A stretch of 64,000 bases of DNA from Escherichia phage PC3: the sequence record ON184125; one strand, given 5' to 3'. This document shows, in pieces, positions 13,093 through 64,000 of the stretch. Within the stretch, counting starts at the first letter, position 1, and the number at the start of each line of letters is the position of its first letter. The notes under the pieces were generated by a model. That model was not told the DNA's origin. It saw only the letters and a list, made by a program, of their open reading frames with translations, and did not search any database. Both the position numbers and the translations under genes were made by a program.

Positions 13093-13965
13093 ATGACAAC
13101 TACATTTTCCAAGAACGTGAATCTGAATCTGGCTTTCGGTAATGCAAAGGGCGACGTCACATCGCCCGACTTTGGTAAGATCCGCAATCAGGCGAAACTG
13201 GTGCTGGAAGAAACCCGTGAACTGCTGGAAGCGGCGTATTTCGACCACGAGGTGAAAATTGAGTTCACTGCATCTCCGCGAGTCCTGAAAGAACCCGTTG
13301 TTGTCGACATCAAAGACATTATGCGCCAGATCATGGATGCCCAGGGTGACATCACAACAGTCAACGACGGCGTGGCTCATATTGCTGGTTTCGACGGTGA
13401 CGAATGCCTACAGCGCGTGTATGCCTCTAACATGAGCAAGTTCATCCGTAATGAAGGTGAAGTTGTGCCAGCACTGGATTACTACTACAACAAAGGATTC
13501 CCACGCGAAAGTCTGCGCATCGAAGGGGAATTCCCTCAGGCGTGCATCAAAGTGGTAGACACCATCACCGTCGACGGCAAAGAGTACCCGGCTGGCAAGT
13601 TCCTGAAGAACATGGCAACCTTCAAAGAGCCGGACTTCTCTGATATGTTGACCGCCGAGCCTAAGCGCCAGATCACTGAAATCATTCTGACGGGTACGGC
13701 CATTCCAGGCCAGCTCGGTTCTAACGAACACGCTGGTGTTGCCTTCGCTCCGTTCGATTTTATTGACGAGATCATGGGATACACCAAGATGGGCTTCCAG
13801 GCGTTCTCTGGCGAAACAGTCGAGAGCTACATTCCCGTGTTTGTTTTCAATGAAGACAACTTCCCAACTCTACCGTTGATCTGGGGTGAATGGAAAGCCA
13901 ACGTCCGTATCTATGTGGCCAGCCCAGTGCAATCATCTATCACCCAACTGACCCGTATCGATTAA
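13093..13965 (+). CDS. Hypothetical protein (290 aa); weak MazG-like helical motif at N-terminus
   Basis: ORF with GGAG SD; LEETRELLEAAYF ... DIMRQIMDAQGD is a weak, unverified resemblance. Confidence 0.45.
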   Translation: MTTTFSKNVNLNLAFGNAKGDVTSPDFGKIRNQAKLVLEETRELLEAAYFDHEVKIEFTASPRVLKEPVVVDIKDIMRQIMDAQGDITTVNDGVAHIAGFDGDECLQRVYASNMSKFIRNEGEVVPALDYYYNKGFPRESLRIEGEFPQACIKVVDTITVDGKEYPAGKFLKNMATFKEPDFSDMLTAEPKRQITEIILTGTAIPGQLGSNEHAGVAFAPFDFIDEIMGYTKMGFQAFSGETVESYIPVFVFNEDNFPTLPLIWGEWKANVRIYVASPVQSSITQLTRID

Positions 13966-14033: not shown

Positions 14034-15254
14034 ATGAAAGATAAAGCCCTGGACGTCCCGTACTGCGGTGTCCGTGAAGAAAAGATAAAGTCGGCCAAAC
14101 CGGTTCTCAGTCCGACCCATACCAGCCTGTCTTACGAATGGATGCGCGATCGTTATCAGATCCACGTCAAGAAGGACGTCCAGCGCCTTCCTGCTCCTTG
14201 GACTGATAATCCCATATTACGGCAGGTCAAGTTCTGTAACGTCCGGAGAGAGCACGACAGGCAGTCTCTCAACCTGATCAACAACATCGTCAACAACGAT
14301 GCTCTGGGTATGGCCGACAAGATGTTCAACTGCGTGATGTTTCGCATGTTCAACCTCTGGGATCCAATCCAGGCTATCGGCGGCGCGATGACGATCAAAG
14401 AATTCGCCGAGATCAACCTCGATGCAACCCGCGAACGACTTCAGAAGTTCGAGGCCGACGGCGGTAAGGTATTCACCAATGCCTTCAACACGGGCGGCCT
14501 GAAGCAATGCCTGGCTTTCCCTGAGATGGTTGTCAACCACAAGGAGCAGCGCTTCGGTGGGATGATGGTGAATCTGATCTGTAAAGATGGTTCAACCCAG
14601 AACATGGATTATAAAGAAGCCAAGGCGATAGCCGAAGCAGAACCGGACTTCTACACCATCGAAGGTTGGGAACCGTACATGCCAATGCGTGTCATCCGCT
14701 CCCTGAAGGCATTCGTCAACAAGTATCCAAATTATTTCCATGACCTGCTGCGCCTTGGTACTCCTTTGGAAGTATACCAGCGCATGTACGACGACATCGA
14801 AGGGCTTGGTCCATTCCTGGCCTATCAGATCTGGGTAGACTTCACTTACATTCCTGAATATCCTTTCAGTGAGAACCACTTCACGGTTGCTGGACCAGGC
14901 TGTCGCGCAGGGATCGACCTGATGTTCCAGGACAAAGATGGCATGACGCATGAAGAATGCATCTTCTGGTTGCGGGACAATCAGGACGCGGTTTATGGCC
15001 CTCTTGGGTATAACAGGGAAGAATTTTGGTCTGCGGAAGAGCCTTGGGATCGCCATTTAAATATAATGGCAGGAGAAAATATGTTTTGTGAACTTCAGAA
15101 ATATACCCGTTGTGTAGAGGCCATACAGCAAGGTAAAAAGCCGCGCGGGAAGGTTGGATATGACGGCGGTGGGGAATACAAAAAGCGCTGTGATGAAGTC
15201 GTGCTCAAACGTGGTTCCGTCAATTTGCTGGACCGTTTGAAGAAACCTGAATAA
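14034..15254 (+). CDS. Hypothetical protein (406 aa)
   Basis: Well-formed ORF with AGAGGA SD; no motif I can assign. Confidence 0.5.
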   Translation: MKDKALDVPYCGVREEKIKSAKPVLSPTHTSLSYEWMRDRYQIHVKKDVQRLPAPWTDNPILRQVKFCNVRREHDRQSLNLINNIVNNDALGMADKMFNCVMFRMFNLWDPIQAIGGAMTIKEFAEINLDATRERLQKFEADGGKVFTNAFNTGGLKQCLAFPEMVVNHKEQRFGGMMVNLICKDGSTQNMDYKEAKAIAEAEPDFYTIEGWEPYMPMRVIRSLKAFVNKYPNYFHDLLRLGTPLEVYQRMYDDIEGLGPFLAYQIWVDFTYIPEYPFSENHFTVAGPGCRAGIDLMFQDKDGMTHEECIFWLRDNQDAVYGPLGYNREEFWSAEEPWDRHLNIMAGENMFCELQKYTRCVEAIQQGKKPRGKVGYDGGGEYKKRCDEVVLKRGSVNLLDRLKKPE

Positions 15255-31086: not shown

Positions 31087-32188
31087 AATTGGCGATCTGC
31101 ATATCGGGAGCCGTAATGGTTCTCGATACGTTCGCGACTTCATCAAGAACTATCTCATCAATTATTTCATTCCTGAACTTGCCGACTCTGATATCAAAGA
31201 GGTCTGGCAGTTCGGTGATATGTTTGATGTCCGCAAATTCATGTACGGTCGTGACAAAGACTGGCTGAAGGATGAACTCACCCCTGCATTGAAAGCGGCT
31301 GGTATCAAGTGGAATGGCATCGTGGGTAACCATGACATCACCCTGGAAGAGTCCAACCGCATCAACTGGCCATCCTACCTGAACGAACTCGACCCGGATG
31401 TGTACTGCTATTACAGCGAACCGACCGAAGTGATGATCGAGGGTGTCAAGACTCTGCTGCTGCCTTGGATCAACAAGGAGAACTATGATGCGTCTATTAA
31501 AGCGATACAAGATACAGACGCCGAGTACTGTTTTGCGCATCTGGAGCTGGCGGGGTTCAAAATGTACCAGTCTTCTACTTGTGATCACGGTCAGATCGAC
31601 GTTGCTCTGCTTTCCAAGTTTACCAGGGTCGACACGGGCCATTTCCATACCCGTTCGATGGAAGGTAACATTCAATATATTGGGACTCCATATCACCTGA
31701 ACTGGGAAGACTACAAAGACGGCACTAACCGTGGCTTCTATGTGGACGACATGCGTGGTGGTGAGATCTTTATCCCGAACGCCGAGCACCAGACGCTGTT
31801 CCGCTATGTGGAATATGATTACACCAAGTTGTCCTCTGATGAAGAAGGTAATTGGATCGACCCGGAATGGCTGAACACAGGCTTGGGTATTGAAGGGCAA
31901 ATTGTTAAGGTTATTGTACAGAACCGTGACAATGCTAAGCATTATGAAAAGTTCTGTGATGCGATGAAGCGATGCAAGTGTATTGACTACAACTTCATCG
32001 ACCGGACGATTACTGTTGCTGCCGAGAAGGTTGAGGTCACCGAAGAGATGGTGGCGACCGATGCGGTGGAAGTCCTGAAGAAGGATATCCGCGCCGGGAA
32101 CAACATTCAGCGCCCCGACAACGTCTGTAAACTGGCAGAGCACTTCTATAATGCTGCCCAACAACGCCTGAACAAACTGGATGCATAA
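31073..32188 (+). CDS. 47: Recombination endonuclease subunit (gp47-like, Mre11/SbcD family)
   Basis: Phosphoesterase motifs GDLHIG, GDMFD, GNHD, GHFH; collinear with T4 gp47. Confidence 0.85.
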   Translation: MAIAKIGDLHIGSRNGSRYVRDFIKNYLINYFIPELADSDIKEVWQFGDMFDVRKFMYGRDKDWLKDELTPALKAAGIKWNGIVGNHDITLEESNRINWPSYLNELDPDVYCYYSEPTEVMIEGVKTLLLPWINKENYDASIKAIQDTDAEYCFAHLELAGFKMYQSSTCDHGQIDVALLSKFTRVDTGHFHTRSMEGNIQYIGTPYHLNWEDYKDGTNRGFYVDDMRGGEIFIPNAEHQTLFRYVEYDYTKLSSDEEGNWIDPEWLNTGLGIEGQIVKVIVQNRDNAKHYEKFCDAMKRCKCIDYNFIDRTITVAAEKVEVTEEMVATDAVEVLKKDIRAGNNIQRPDNVCKLAEHFYNAAQQRLNKLDA

Positions 32189-61047: not shown

Positions 61048-61122
61048 ATTTAAGTTCAGAAACTGTTCAATAGATGAAGGGGTTGCTATAATAGCAGCTC
61101 CTTTTGTTTATCGGAGCAGTTT

Positions 61123-61782
61123 ATGTCCTACTCCCTGAAGGGGCTGATGAAGCGCCCCGTCCACACATTCTTTAAACCACCCGTCGTAAAGGGGATCTAC
61201 CCAGCACGAGGGCAAATCTACTACGTCAAAGGCTCCAATGGTAGCGGTAAATCCACTGTGCCGTCTCAGCTGGCGGAGAGGGATCCTCAGGCGTATGTCG
61301 TGACCCATAACGGCAAGGTAATGCTGACTGTCTGTCCTTCGTTCAACGTGGTCTGTATCGGTAAATATGACAAGTCGAAGTCCAAGGGGGTTGATTCCCT
61401 GAAGGACACTGAGCAGATGTTGTTCGCGTTGTCTATTGCTGACCAACCAGAATACTTGAAATATGATGTGATTTTCGAAGGTATCATTCCATCCACATTA
61501 TTGAGTTCTTGGATCCCCCGCCTGACACGCCCACCACGTGAATTGGTTGTGCTCTTTATGGACACTCCCCTTGAAACGTGTATCTCCCGCGTTAAATCAC
61601 GTAACGGCGGTGTGGACTTCAATGAAAGTCTGGTGGTCGAGAAGTGGGAGAGAGTTCATGACCATCGTCAACGACATAAAGACTTGTTCCCTACGGTAGC
61701 TGCGGGTATGATGAAGTCTCACGGCCTAACGGTAGACCAGGCTGTGATGGCATTCCTCTGTCGTGATTTTGGGAGTATCTGA
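61123..61782 (+). CDS. P-loop kinase (candidate DNA/nucleotide kinase of a pyrimidine-modification pathway)
   Basis: Walker A GSNGSGKST near N-terminus; 219 aa; immediately upstream of, and overlapping, the TS-family gene. Confidence 0.5.
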   Translation: MSYSLKGLMKRPVHTFFKPPVVKGIYPARGQIYYVKGSNGSGKSTVPSQLAERDPQAYVVTHNGKVMLTVCPSFNVVCIGKYDKSKSKGVDSLKDTEQMLFALSIADQPEYLKYDVIFEGIIPSTLLSSWIPRLTRPPRELVVLFMDTPLETCISRVKSRNGGVDFNESLVVEKWERVHDHRQRHKDLFPTVAAGMMKSHGLTVDQAVMAFLCRDFGSI

Positions 61783-62828
61783 TGGAAATCAAAGCAATTA
61801 ACAACAATGACATGCTGAAGCAGGCTGTCTTGGCTATCCGTGAATTCGGGATCGAATCTGATCCTGGTAATGCTGAAATAAATACTGATAGCACCCGCTT
61901 CCTTGATGGCGTGACCATAACCGTCGCCGACATCCGTGACCGCTGGCTATCCGTTGAAGGTCGTAACTCATCGGCTATCGCTGCCATCGGCGAGACCTTC
62001 TGGGTTCTGTCCGGGCGCGATGACGTTCGCTTCCTGTCCCGCGTATTACCTCGCGCTGCTAACTTTTCGGATGATGGGGTAACATGGCGAGCTGCTTATG
62101 GTCCGCGTCTGTACGCCCATGGCCAGCTGGATAGCGTTATCAACCGCCTGCGCAAGAACCCAAACACTCGCCAGGCGTACCTCACCATCTATGACCCGGC
62201 TCTAGATTCGGATGCTGGTCTGGCGAAGTTCAGCGAGAGCGGCGAAGCAAAGACTAAGGACATGGTGTGTAACCTGGCTCTGTTGTTCGCCATCGTTGAA
62301 GGTCGTCTGAACCTGACGGTCATCAACCGCTCACAGGATGTTCTGTGGGGGATGAGTTCAATCAACTTCATTGAGTTCTCTATTCTTCAGGAAGTGATTG
62401 CTCGGGTGCTGGACGTTGACGTCGGTCAGTACAAGCTATTCTCTAACAATCTTCATTACTACAACAATGAAGTCAGCCAGAAGCAGCTTGGCAAGATTAC
62501 CAAAGACACAAAAGTCACTGGTGGTTTCATCAACTCCATGATTCACTTCACGAACGTGACCAACCAGAACCATATCCGCAATCTGTTCACTGGTGTGCTT
62601 CATCACTGTGATATCGGCAGCCCGTGGGAAACTGTGGTCGCCCACCTGAAGGAATATGATGCTGATCGTGGCCTGATTGTACAGATGGCGTACTGTCTGC
62701 ACTGCAAACTGAACGAAAAGCTCATTAACCTGGACCTGATTCAGGATCATGGCTTGAACACCGCGCTCACCCATTCTCCGGTTGACCGCAAGATCGTTGA
62801 TCCTAAGTTCCTGGAAGGTGTAGTATGA
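61782..62828 (+). CDS. Thymidylate-synthase-family pyrimidine hydroxymethylase (dUMP or dCMP hydroxymethylase-like)
   Basis: TS-fold signatures: catalytic Cys in DMVCNLALLF and RSQDVLWG (cf. ThyA PCH.. and RS.DV); diverged from canonical ThyA. Confidence 0.65.
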   Translation: MEIKAINNNDMLKQAVLAIREFGIESDPGNAEINTDSTRFLDGVTITVADIRDRWLSVEGRNSSAIAAIGETFWVLSGRDDVRFLSRVLPRAANFSDDGVTWRAAYGPRLYAHGQLDSVINRLRKNPNTRQAYLTIYDPALDSDAGLAKFSESGEAKTKDMVCNLALLFAIVEGRLNLTVINRSQDVLWGMSSINFIEFSILQEVIARVLDVDVGQYKLFSNNLHYYNNEVSQKQLGKITKDTKVTGGFINSMIHFTNVTNQNHIRNLFTGVLHHCDIGSPWETVVAHLKEYDADRGLIVQMAYCLHCKLNEKLINLDLIQDHGLNTALTHSPVDRKIVDPKFLEGVV

Positions 62829-63394
62829 TGTACCCAAATCTTGAATTCTTTACGGGGCGCAAACGCTCCGGCAAGGACTTCTGTTTGGAGTCCCTGATCA
62901 GTTACCACCACTTACAGGGTGATATGGACATACAGCGCCTTTCTTTCTCTGATGAACTGCGCCGTGTAGCCAACTACATCTACCCATGGCTCCCAGCGGA
63001 GGTAGAGGATGCCGTGAAGGACGTTCCTTACGTGCACCCTGATAACCCCAAGGGCTTAACTCCACGGCAGATCTGGCTTCATCTAGGCAGCGATACGGGC
63101 TTGCGTTATGTACAGCCTGATCTGTTCCTGGCATTCTTCAAGCGCTTCCAGCTTCCTCTGGTAGAGCAGAACCCCCACGTCCATTATATCGTGAGCGATC
63201 TGCGTACCCCTCAGGAATATGAATGGGCGCTGAGTACGAAATGTCCTATCACCCGTATTTCAAAGGCCGACCGTGCTGGTATCATAGAGGACGATATAGA
63301 GGCTTTCATTGACCAAATGAAAGTGGACTACGAATTCCTCAATCCATTTGATGGTTGGGAACCGTTCGTTAAATTCTACGGAGAACGTAAATGA
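62825..63394 (+). CDS. Deoxynucleoside monophosphate kinase-like protein (T4 gp1-like)
   Basis: N-terminal FFTGRKRSGKD resembles T4 dNMP kinase LSGVKRSGKD. Confidence 0.6.
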   Translation: MMYPNLEFFTGRKRSGKDFCLESLISYHHLQGDMDIQRLSFSDELRRVANYIYPWLPAEVEDAVKDVPYVHPDNPKGLTPRQIWLHLGSDTGLRYVQPDLFLAFFKRFQLPLVEQNPHVHYIVSDLRTPQEYEWALSTKCPITRISKADRAGIIEDDIEAFIDQMKVDYEFLNPFDGWEPFVKFYGERK

Positions 63395-63945
63395 TCACAG
63401 CAGGGCATATCAAAAGCCTGCTCGAACTCCAAAAGGCCACCAACGTGGCCTACTTTGGGGAAGAGTGGAAGAATGTATGGAGTCAGAACGCAGTCATCAA
63501 CTCTATCTATCGTGAGTGGGCAGAGTTCCTTGATGAAACCACCCGTGACTGGAAGGTCTATGGCAACGACATCGGGTTTGACCATACGAACGCAGTTTAT
63601 GAACTGGTGGACGTGGTACACTTCATGTTGTGCTTCATCCTTGTGGACCGCACCAAAGGTGAGATCGAAGAAGAATTTGAAGTCCTTAGTAATCGCGAAT
63701 TCACCCCATCTGCTTTGGGTGTTGTAGGGCATCACAATGTTACGTACCGCCTTGGGCAATTCATGAACGATCCTTGCGTTGAGACTCTCATGTTCTTCCT
63801 GTCGTCTGCGTGTTCTTATATGGAGATCGACATTGAGACTTACATACTGGCACACAAACGCAAGAACGATCGCAATCGCCTGCGTGCTGCTGGTGGCGCG
63901 GATTACGATAAGTCTGCAGAAACCCCTCTGACCCTGGAGTTCTAA
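63391..63945 (+). CDS. MazG-like dNTP pyrophosphohydrolase (T4 gp56 dCTPase/dUTPase-like)
   Basis: YELVDVVHFMLCFILV matches gp56/MazG core FELVDIFHFVLNMFV; EWAEFLDET acidic helix. Confidence 0.6.
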   Translation: MITAGHIKSLLELQKATNVAYFGEEWKNVWSQNAVINSIYREWAEFLDETTRDWKVYGNDIGFDHTNAVYELVDVVHFMLCFILVDRTKGEIEEEFEVLSNREFTPSALGVVGHHNVTYRLGQFMNDPCVETLMFFLSSACSYMEIDIETYILAHKRKNDRNRLRAAGGADYDKSAETPLTLEF

Positions 63946-64000
63946 TGTTTACAGTCGTCGTTTCATATCATGCAGACAACGCGGCGAACGCATCCGCTAA

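Follow-up and report, generated by a model that had tools for sequence, protein, structure and literature searches.

The four genes at positions 61123-63945 of the 64,000-nucleotide stretch of Escherichia phage PC3 analysed here (ON184125; hereafter the window) form, together with the ACT-like gene that follows them, what is very probably the conserved early block of a thymidine-hypermodification pathway of the type known from phage ViI, with 5-(2-aminoethoxy)methyl-deoxyuridine (5-NeOmdU) as the modified base. Escherichia phage PH4 (ON184126.1; Agtrevirus, Aglimvirinae, Ackermannviridae; for the placement in Agtrevirus see PMC10791037) matches the 3-kb block with 100% identity. The window begins at PH4 position 32001; the remaining pathway genes were examined in the remainder of the PH4 genome and in the genome of ViI. 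The gene set predicts that 5-NeOmdU replaces part of the thymidine in PH4.

Of this reading, the sequence analysis shows the family memberships of the proteins, their orthology and synteny, the uracil-type residue pattern of the hydroxymethylase and that the pathway is complete; what the enzymes do and which base results would be as described for close relatives in the literature. The original prediction, made from the letters of the window, had described four overlapping, co-oriented genes with exactly these boundaries and had suggested a hydroxymethyl-pyrimidine-derived, possibly hypermodified base. The layout is borne out, the unit running in addition into a fifth gene, and the suggestion of a hypermodified base is supported and agrees with mass spectrometry coupled to liquid chromatography (LC-MS) of close relatives (PMC5889632). 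The same prediction had held that neither the identity of the modified pyrimidine nor the manner of its modification could be read from the sequence. This was too cautious, as an asparagine of the hydroxymethylase (Asn195) points to dUMP, the kinase family acts on 5-hydroxymethyl-deoxyuridine (5-hmdU), and 5-NeOmdU is predicted by the genes for a transferase and a decarboxylase of the ViI type, complete and highly conserved, that lie elsewhere in the genome.

The four co-oriented open reading frames (ORFs) have lengths of 219, 348, 189 and 184 aa in the ORF listing and are assigned as follows:

61123..61782, + strand: ORF1, predicted 5-hmdU DNA kinase (5-HMUDK) of clade 1, orthologue of ViI gp67 (PF18748; 88% identity to ViI gp67)
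61782..62828, + strand: ORF2, predicted dUMP hydroxymethylase of the thymidylate synthase (TS) superfamily (alignment with Cys163 and Asn195; phrog_3676)
62825..63394, + strand: ORF3, T4 gp1-type deoxynucleoside monophosphate (dNMP) kinase, putatively a 5-hmdUMP kinase (phrog_139; P-loop)
63391..63945, + strand: ORF4, nucleoside triphosphate (NTP) pyrophosphatase of the all-alpha dimeric dUTPase family, dUTPase_2, T4 gp56-like (PF08761; phrog_173)

All four are genuine genes, each of them with strong homology. Their junctions are overlapping stops and starts (TGATG at 61782, ATGA at 62825-62828 and at 63391-63394, TAATG at 63945), a pattern typical of translational coupling within an operon. 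As the TAATG overlap shows, this unit extends past 63945 into the fifth gene, of which only 56 bases lie inside the window.

In the pathway that we propose, ORF2 to ORF4 would act on the nucleotide pool before replication and ORF1 on the DNA after replication. ORF4 would hydrolyse dUTP to dUMP, and ORF2 would transfer the methylene group of methylenetetrahydrofolate to C5 of dUMP via Cys163, with hydration instead of reduction, to yield 5-hmdUMP. ORF3 would phosphorylate this product to 5-hmdUDP, a host nucleoside diphosphate kinase would complete 5-hmdUTP, and the phage polymerase would place it into DNA at the positions of T. Once ORF1 has phosphorylated the base, the orthologue of ViI gp247 (aGPT-Pplase2) would exchange the phosphate for the side-chain oxygen of serine, giving O-serinyl-thymidine (O-SerT), from which a pyridoxal phosphate (PLP) decarboxylase, the orthologue of ViI gp226, would remove CO2 to leave 5-NeOmdU. 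The published scheme runs from dUMP through 5-hmdUMP, 5-hmdUDP and 5-hmdUTP into DNA and then through 5-phosphomethyl-deoxyuridine (5-PmdU) and O-SerT to 5-NeOmdU; in ViI, gp67 and gp243 make 5-PmdU, serine is transferred by gp247, and the decarboxylation is due to gp226 (PMC8989533). Non-hypermodified 5-hmdU becomes thymine, by a route described in 2018 as not known (PMC5889632). What we infer in this pathway is on which substrates the dNMP kinase and the pyrophosphatase act, and that 5-NeOmdU is present in PH4 virions.

Kinase and hydroxymethylase

ORF1 matches the Pfam model for 5-hmdU DNA kinase (PF18748, HMUDK_HMUD1) over positions 1-195 of 196, with an E-value of 3.6e-109 and 363.2 bits against a cut-off of 27 bits. 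Over its 219 aa it is 88% identical to ViI gp67 (YP_004327432), which occupies the equivalent genomic position. Its Walker A motif GSNGSGKST (residues 37-45) has G37, N39-K43 and T45 invariant with ViI gp67 and with gp54 of Pseudomonas phage M6, and a DTPLE motif is common to ORF1 and M6 gp54, the two proteins being 32% identical in the alignment. Models of the thymidylate kinase, dNK and polynucleotide-kinase types gave marginal matches (thymidylate kinase at E 0.27). Among PDB sequences generic P-loop matches alone were obtained, the best of them to nucleotide-binding domain 1 of CFTR (E 0.0086), and NCBIfam lacks models for this kinase, for ORF3, and for the ACT-like protein and the gp160 orthologue discussed below. 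The genomic context ties ORF1 to the dUMP hydroxymethylase encoded by the next gene and to the ADDT (PF18724) and HMUDK_hel (PF18723) proteins of the same genome. Purified M6 gp54 and ViI gp67 convert 5-hmdU in SP8 DNA to 5-PmdU with ATP in vitro (PMC8989533). We assign ORF1 to the 5-hmdU DNA kinases, clade 1, on the strength of these family relationships.

The original prediction had singled out a P-loop kinase without an obvious T4 counterpart and had proposed a profile search in order to separate a 5-hmdU DNA kinase from an ordinary thymidylate or polynucleotide kinase. The search returned the former, at full length, and no T-even phage is found among the tblastn matches listed for ORF1. 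The family comprises 404 phage records by tblastn, from Ackermannviridae, ViI-like vibriophages, M6-like Pseudomonas phages, Bordetella phages and SP10-like Bacillus phages. In phrog_800 and in many RefSeq records its members are labelled 'terminase small subunit'; other records carry the labels 'tk', 'thymidylate kinase', 'baseplate hub' or 'hypothetical protein'. ViI already possesses separate small and large terminase genes besides gp67.

ORF2 was described in the original prediction as a diverged enzyme of the TS fold, which is what we find, and it belongs on the hydroxymethylase side of this fold. The Pfam model Thymidylat_synt is matched at E 2.3e-15, for the core only (residues 67-234, model positions 54-218 of 266), and the protein remains far below the cut-off of seven out of seven NCBIfam ThyA equivalog models, with a best score of 55.4 bits against 327. 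Its own family, phrog_3676, is the first-ranked PHROG (E 2.8e-183), followed by phrog_5131, the family of SPO1 gp29 (2.6e-58), and by phrog_160, the family of T4 gp42 and TS (4.2e-25); by tblastn, the E-values are 4e-26 for SPO1 gp29 and 3e-28 for the homologue from M6. Of the characterised relatives of ORF2, SPO1 gp29 is the closest. There is no second TS-fold gene in PH4 by tblastn (ThyX was not searched for), and T4 gp42 has no significant tblastn match in this genome.

ORF2 was aligned with ViI gp66, SPO1 gp29 (annotated as dUMP hydroxymethylase), M6 gp58, T4 gp42 and, entered by hand, E. coli ThyA. The catalytic nucleophile C163 and the residues that bind the phosphate and the pyrimidine in the TS fold (R183, S184, D186, H225, Y227, E71 and Y106) are invariant in this alignment. 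An asparagine at the position of TS N177 is uracil-specific and an aspartate cytosine-specific; Asn195 of ORF2 aligns with N177 of E. coli and with the asparagine of SPO1 and M6, whereas T4 gp42 has Asp179 in that column. In TS the region of W80 and W83 and the C-terminal segment close the active site for hydride transfer. The W80/W83 segment is replaced in ORF2 by ANFSDDG, of which FSDDG is common only to SPO1 gp29 and M6 gp58, and the C-terminus of TS by an unrelated C-terminal domain of about 110 aa. Because the ThyA models are missed, Asn195 is present, FSDDG occurs together with the additional C-terminal domain, and the PHROG ranking falls on the side of SPO1, we identify ORF2 as a dUMP hydroxymethylase, and not as a canonical ThyA or a dCMP hydroxymethylase, as judged from these sequence features. 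The question of dUMP versus dCMP, which the original prediction had left to profile searches and to the specificity residues, is thus answered in favour of dUMP by Asn195 and by the rank of the SPO1 gp29 family above T4 gp42.

Two other interpretations of the module bear on this assignment. According to the first, the phage would follow a T4-like cytosine pathway with ORF2 as dCMP hydroxymethylase and ORF4 as dCTPase. We find this scarcely credible: the best PDB match of ORF2 is indeed a CMP 5-hydroxymethylase, and ORF4 shares a PHROG family with the dCTPase/dUTPase gp56 of T4, but Asn195 stands in place of the cytosine-specifying Asp179, the dUMP-type relatives from SPO1 and M6 far outscore T4 gp42, a phage-encoded dCMP deaminase feeds dUMP, and the DNA of ViI-type phages contains canonical dC (PMC5889632). 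The second interpretation takes the GenBank and RefSeq labels, and the phrog_800 name 'terminase small subunit', at their word and sees an ordinary housekeeping module making dTTP, with a thymidylate synthase, a thymidylate kinase or terminase small subunit, a dNMP kinase and a dUTPase. To this we give next to no credence, for ORF1 scores 363 bits with PF18748 but reaches no better than E 0.27 with thymidylate kinase, ViI has its own small and large terminase genes, and ORF2, at 55 bits against ThyA cut-offs of at least 327, is devoid of the TS tryptophans and of the TS C-terminus.

ORF2 is 77% identical to its ViI orthologue and 95% identical to that of CBA120. It is thereby closer to one Kuttervirus (CBA120) than to another (ViI), the divergence being concentrated in the C-terminal 100 aa or so. 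Across Ackermannviridae records the identity to ORF2 is bimodal, with 101 records reaching at least 90%, 170 lying at 60-80% and hardly any in between; this pattern suggests an exchange of alleles or domains across subfamilies. Nearly all database records label the ORF2-type hydroxymethylase 'thymidylate synthase'.

Pool enzymes and completion of the pathway

The gp1-like kinase and gp56-like pyrophosphatase of the original prediction have proved to be fair labels for ORF3 and ORF4, which share PHROG families with T4 gp1 and gp56. In phrog_139 (dNMP kinase) ORF3 scores at E 1.2e-47 and T4 gp1 at 1.8e-65; in phrog_173 ORF4 scores at 4.5e-40 and T4 gp56 at 5.8e-39. Shared PHROG membership was used for the comparison with T4 because direct BLASTP matches (ORF3 to gp1 at E 0.003, ORF4 to gp56 at E 0.005) spanned short motifs only. 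The P-loop GRKRSGKD of ORF3 (residues 11-18) aligns with GVKRSGKD of T4 gp1 (GxKRSGKD), and the protein is 91% identical to the product of ViI 'dnk'. By the pathway logic of PMC8989533 its substrate would be 5-hmdUMP. ORF4 matches Pfam PF08761 (dUTPase_2) over residues 7-167 with 36.8 bits (cut-off 22.9; E 6e-9). Its best PDB matches are dimeric all-alpha dUTPases, headed by 1w2y of Campylobacter at E 1.3e-3, and its identity to the ViI orthologue is 61%.

The reconstitution of 5-NeOmdU employed five proteins of ViI, namely two kinases, two aGPT-Pplases and one PLP enzyme. All five, run by tblastn on PH4, have counterparts there:

ViI gp67, 5-hmdU DNA kinase: 88% identity in PH4, window 61123-61782
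ViI gp160, clade-1 aGPT-Pplase: 81% identity over 407 aa in PH4, window 14034-15254
ViI gp226, PLP decarboxylase: 90% identity in PH4, outside the window
ViI gp243, second kinase: 48% identity in PH4, outside the window
ViI gp247, serine:DNA transferase (aGPT-Pplase2): 88% identity in PH4, outside the window

Pfam matches among the PH4 pathway proteins are to HMUD2, HMUDK_hel, ADDT and PALP. The PLP lysine of the decarboxylase, K92, is retained in a context identical to that of ViI gp226. The ETSGAC motif of the transferase is likewise identical to ViI, and by analogy with the ETVLC motif of M6 gp51 it would contain the essential Glu and Cys. PH4 further encodes a dCMP deaminase and an NT5C-type nucleotidase.

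Several observations weigh against the pathway as we propose it. The uracil specificity of ORF2 is suggested by one aligned asparagine and by family context, and its closest solved structure is the CMP 5-hydroxymethylase MilA (E 5e-18), thymidylate synthases following at 1e-8 or worse. ORF3 fails to reach the gathering threshold of Pfam DNMK (PF21448; 12.3 against 27.1 bits), and the search of PDB sequences found no solved relative; because of this, its gp1-type membership is to be understood at the level of a remote family, as given by the PHROG profile and the motif. The substrate range of ORF4 may be dUTP only or may extend to dTTP and dCTP. The second kinase shares only 48% identity with ViI gp243 and has a homing-endonuclease domain fused to it. 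Finally, we found no published chemical analysis of virion DNA of PH4 or of any member of the Aglimvirinae, and the LIMEstone paper contains no DNA-modification chemistry. The LC-MS data concern Kuttervirus phages and a vibriophage: a 301-Da nucleoside replacing about 40% of T was measured for ViI, CBA120, CBA6 and 1.255.O only (PMC5889632).

Because Aglimvirinae virion chemistry was not found, we keep a small probability for a different final base. The Agtrevirus base might be something other than 5-NeOmdU, for example a retained O-SerT or another amino-acid adduct. Besides the missing chemistry, the divergent, endonuclease-fused second kinase would fit such an outcome, and related phages with the same kinase do make other bases, 5-(2-aminoethyl)-deoxyuridine (5-NedU) in M6 and 5-aminomethyl-deoxyuridine (5-NmdU) in PaMx11 (PMC8989533). 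We see only a slim chance for it: transferase and decarboxylase, the two enzymes on which the appended group depends, show 88% and 90% identity to their ViI counterparts with unchanged catalytic residues, and no homologue of a radical-SAM or flavin lyase turned up in a search that was not exhaustive.

Alternatively, the phage might stop at 5-hmdU, with T replaced as in SPO1 and the kinase serving another role. Older and some recent papers on Ackermannviridae do call the genomes HMdU-substituted (PMC10791037), and the three pre-replicative genes would suffice for this result. Its chance is slimmer still, given that PH4 encodes a full-length 5-HMUDK, a second kinase, an ADDT transferase and a PLP decarboxylase with key residues retained, and that virion DNA of ViI and CBA120 is free of 5-hmdU (PMC8989533; PMC5889632). 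The ViI-type pathway ending in 5-NeOmdU is the reading that we retain below.

Neighbouring features and related genomes

Four further features of the window touch upon the module:

63945..64000, + strand, cut by the window end: start of the fifth gene, a phage ACT-like domain protein of 180 aa, PH4_000115 (PF24021)
14034..15254, + strand: clade-1 aGPT-Pplase / HMUDK_hel, orthologue of ViI gp160 (tblastn, PF18723)
13093..13965, + strand: MazG-like pyrophosphatase of 290 aa, orthologue of ViI gp161 (tblastn, phrog_2144)
61070..61111, + strand: terminator-like hairpin, whose loop contains TATAAT, and T-run, separating the kinase from the 278-aa gene upstream of it

The full-length ACT-like protein, taken from PH4 (to PH4 position 96487), matches PF24021 (ACT_phage) at E 3.5e-79 and is 56% identical to ViI gp62. 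It is found in Ackermannviridae only (269 records), always between the dUTPase and uvsX. The gp160 orthologue matches PF18723 at E 2.5e-79. ViI gp160 supplied one of the five lysates from which 5-NeOmdU synthesis was reconstituted, and the need for either aGPT-Pplase was still unsettled at the time of the reconstitution (PMC5889632; PMC8989533). Directly upstream of the gp160-type HMUDK_hel gene lies the MazG-like gene 13093-13965, the product of which is 60% identical to ViI gp161, matches phrog_2144 at 4.7e-132, has no Pfam match and is possibly a pool-sanitising enzyme. Together with ORF4 and a ViI gp11-like protein it is one of three NTP pyrophosphatases in the genome that are annotated as MazG-like or dUTPase-type.

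These proteins invite a joint reading of the origin of plain T, into which roughly 60% of the 5-hmdU, the non-hypermodified part, is turned; it concerns proteins outside the four genes. ORF4 or the MazG-like protein 13093-13965 would remove dTTP, so that all T positions would start as 5-hmdU; the HMUDK_hel protein 14034-15254 would then convert kinase-activated 5-PmdU to thymine, and the co-translated ACT-like protein would be a small-molecule-sensing partner. As a whole we regard this combination as unlikely.

The second kinase of PH4 lies within PH4_000174 (PH4 136037-137533, - strand, outside the window), annotated as 'homing endonuclease F-LimXI'. This is one continuous ORF of 498 codons, in which the N-terminal 200 aa or so form a homing-endonuclease domain (phrog_15209/314) that is joined in frame to the kinase (PF18747 HMUD2, residues 202-497). 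F-LimXI of LIMEstone has been described as free-standing. Because phrog_15209 is 497 positions long, the fusion of endonuclease and second kinase may recur in other phages. Also outside the window, at PH4 139130-142594, the DNA polymerase is annotated as two coding sequences with about 400 bp between them, which recalls the interruptions of the polymerase gene by introns or homing endonucleases described for LIMEstone1.

Upstream of the kinase, the hairpin scan found a stem of 13 pairs at 61076-61104, followed by TGTTTAT, and the intergenic region 61048-61122 folds at -31.6 kcal/mol (z -6.9). The inner stem is kept in 7 Ackermannviridae, and in LIMEstone1 its annotation is that of a factor-independent terminator; the TATAAT hexamer of the loop is kept even in Serratia phage 3M, where the sequence of the stem is different. 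The complete fold in PH4 reaches as far as the GGAG ribosome-binding site of the kinase and pairs with it. A regulatory stem sequestering this site was rejected as a conserved feature, the outer stem being unpaired in 3-5 of the 7 relatives, and covariation measures among these relatives were not above those of shuffles. The inner terminator-like hairpin is the only conserved part of the fold. A scan for sigma-70 promoters gave no more sites than were found in shuffles.

Among related genomes, the 3-kb block is 96-98% identical to other Agtrevirus phages of E. coli and Enterobacter, about 91% identical to Ag3 and SKML-39 and about 89.5% identical to the Dickeya phages of Limestonevirus; most remaining matching records, largely Salmonella and Klebsiella phages, show 80-90% identity. 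Two antisense ORFs within the module on the - strand, 62436-62837 (133 aa) and 63376-63855 (159 aa), have no annotation in PH4 and are probably spurious.

Comparison with known systems

The PH4 module is already known as a system: it is the same as that of ViI and not a variant of it, and publications cover its genes and gene order, what the enzymes do and the conservation across the family. ΦSboM-AG3, SKML-39 and LIMEstone were listed by Lee et al. (2018; PMC5889632) as ViI-like 5-HMUDK phages likely to have 5-NeOmdU, and the same authors noted the association of 5-HMUDK with a dUMP hydroxymethyltransferase (PMC5889632). A review of 2024 describes all modification genes as highly conserved across the Ackermannviridae (PMC11721090). 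Our search of the literature of 2022 and later for the kinase together with Ackermannviridae found nothing. The modification is of consequence for the phages: in vitro, about 60% of commercial restriction enzymes are blocked by 5-NeOmdU, and the base is believed to aid Ackermannviridae in evading host nucleases (PMC11721090). Ackermannviridae phages are under development for therapy and biocontrol. The practical value of our results is limited to annotation: PH4 and hundreds of related records mislabel the kinase and the hydroxymethylase.

ViI, the pathway of which was described by Lee et al. (2018, PNAS; 2021/22, NAR), shares with PH4 the order kinase-thyA-dnk-dUTPase-gp62-uvsX, with the first four proteins 88%, 77%, 91% and 61% identical, and its pathway proteins gp160, gp226, gp243 and gp247 all have PH4 counterparts. 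The two phages belong to different subfamilies, PH4 to the Aglimvirinae and ViI to the Cvivirinae. They differ in the C-terminal 100 aa or so of the hydroxymethylase and in much of the dUTPase_2 protein, and the second kinase of PH4 carries an N-terminal homing-endonuclease domain, unlike ViI gp243. CBA120, a Kuttervirus infecting E. coli O157, has a hydroxymethylase 95% identical to that of PH4 and the same kinase family and cluster. It represents another genus, and the rest of its 3-kb block lies in the band of 80-90% DNA identity. Its virion DNA contains 5-NeOmdU by LC-MS (PMC5889632).

The Bacillus phage SPO1 follows the same pool logic, with dCMP deaminase, dUMP hydroxymethylase and dNMP kinase as in PH4. 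Common to its gp29 and ORF2 are the Cys, the Asn, three motifs (FSDDG, TKDxxCNL and NRSxDxxWG) and an extra C-terminal domain, at an identity of only about 35%. In the comparison made in PMC5889632, none of the 5-HMUDK and hypermodification genes reported as restricted to hypermodifying phages is ascribed to SPO1. M6 possesses the same kinase family (gp54), the kinase being associated with a TS homologue, gp58. It differs from PH4 in that its C-C linked base, 5-NedU, is made from glycine with the help of a radical-SAM isomerase and a decarboxylase; it also lacks the arrangement of gp1-type kinase and dUTPase_2 and has an HD hydrolase beside the TS homologue.

T4, with gp42, gp1 and gp56, resembles PH4 in combining a TS-fold hydroxymethylase with a dNMP kinase and an all-alpha NTP pyrophosphatase, the PHROG families of ORF3 and ORF4 being common to both phages. 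However, T4 modifies cytosine and not uracil (Asp179 versus Asn195), and the pairwise similarity of ORF3 and ORF4 to gp1 and gp56 is limited to motifs. The post-replicative step of T4 is glucosylation, whereas that of the PH4 type would be phosphorylation followed by amino-acid transfer.

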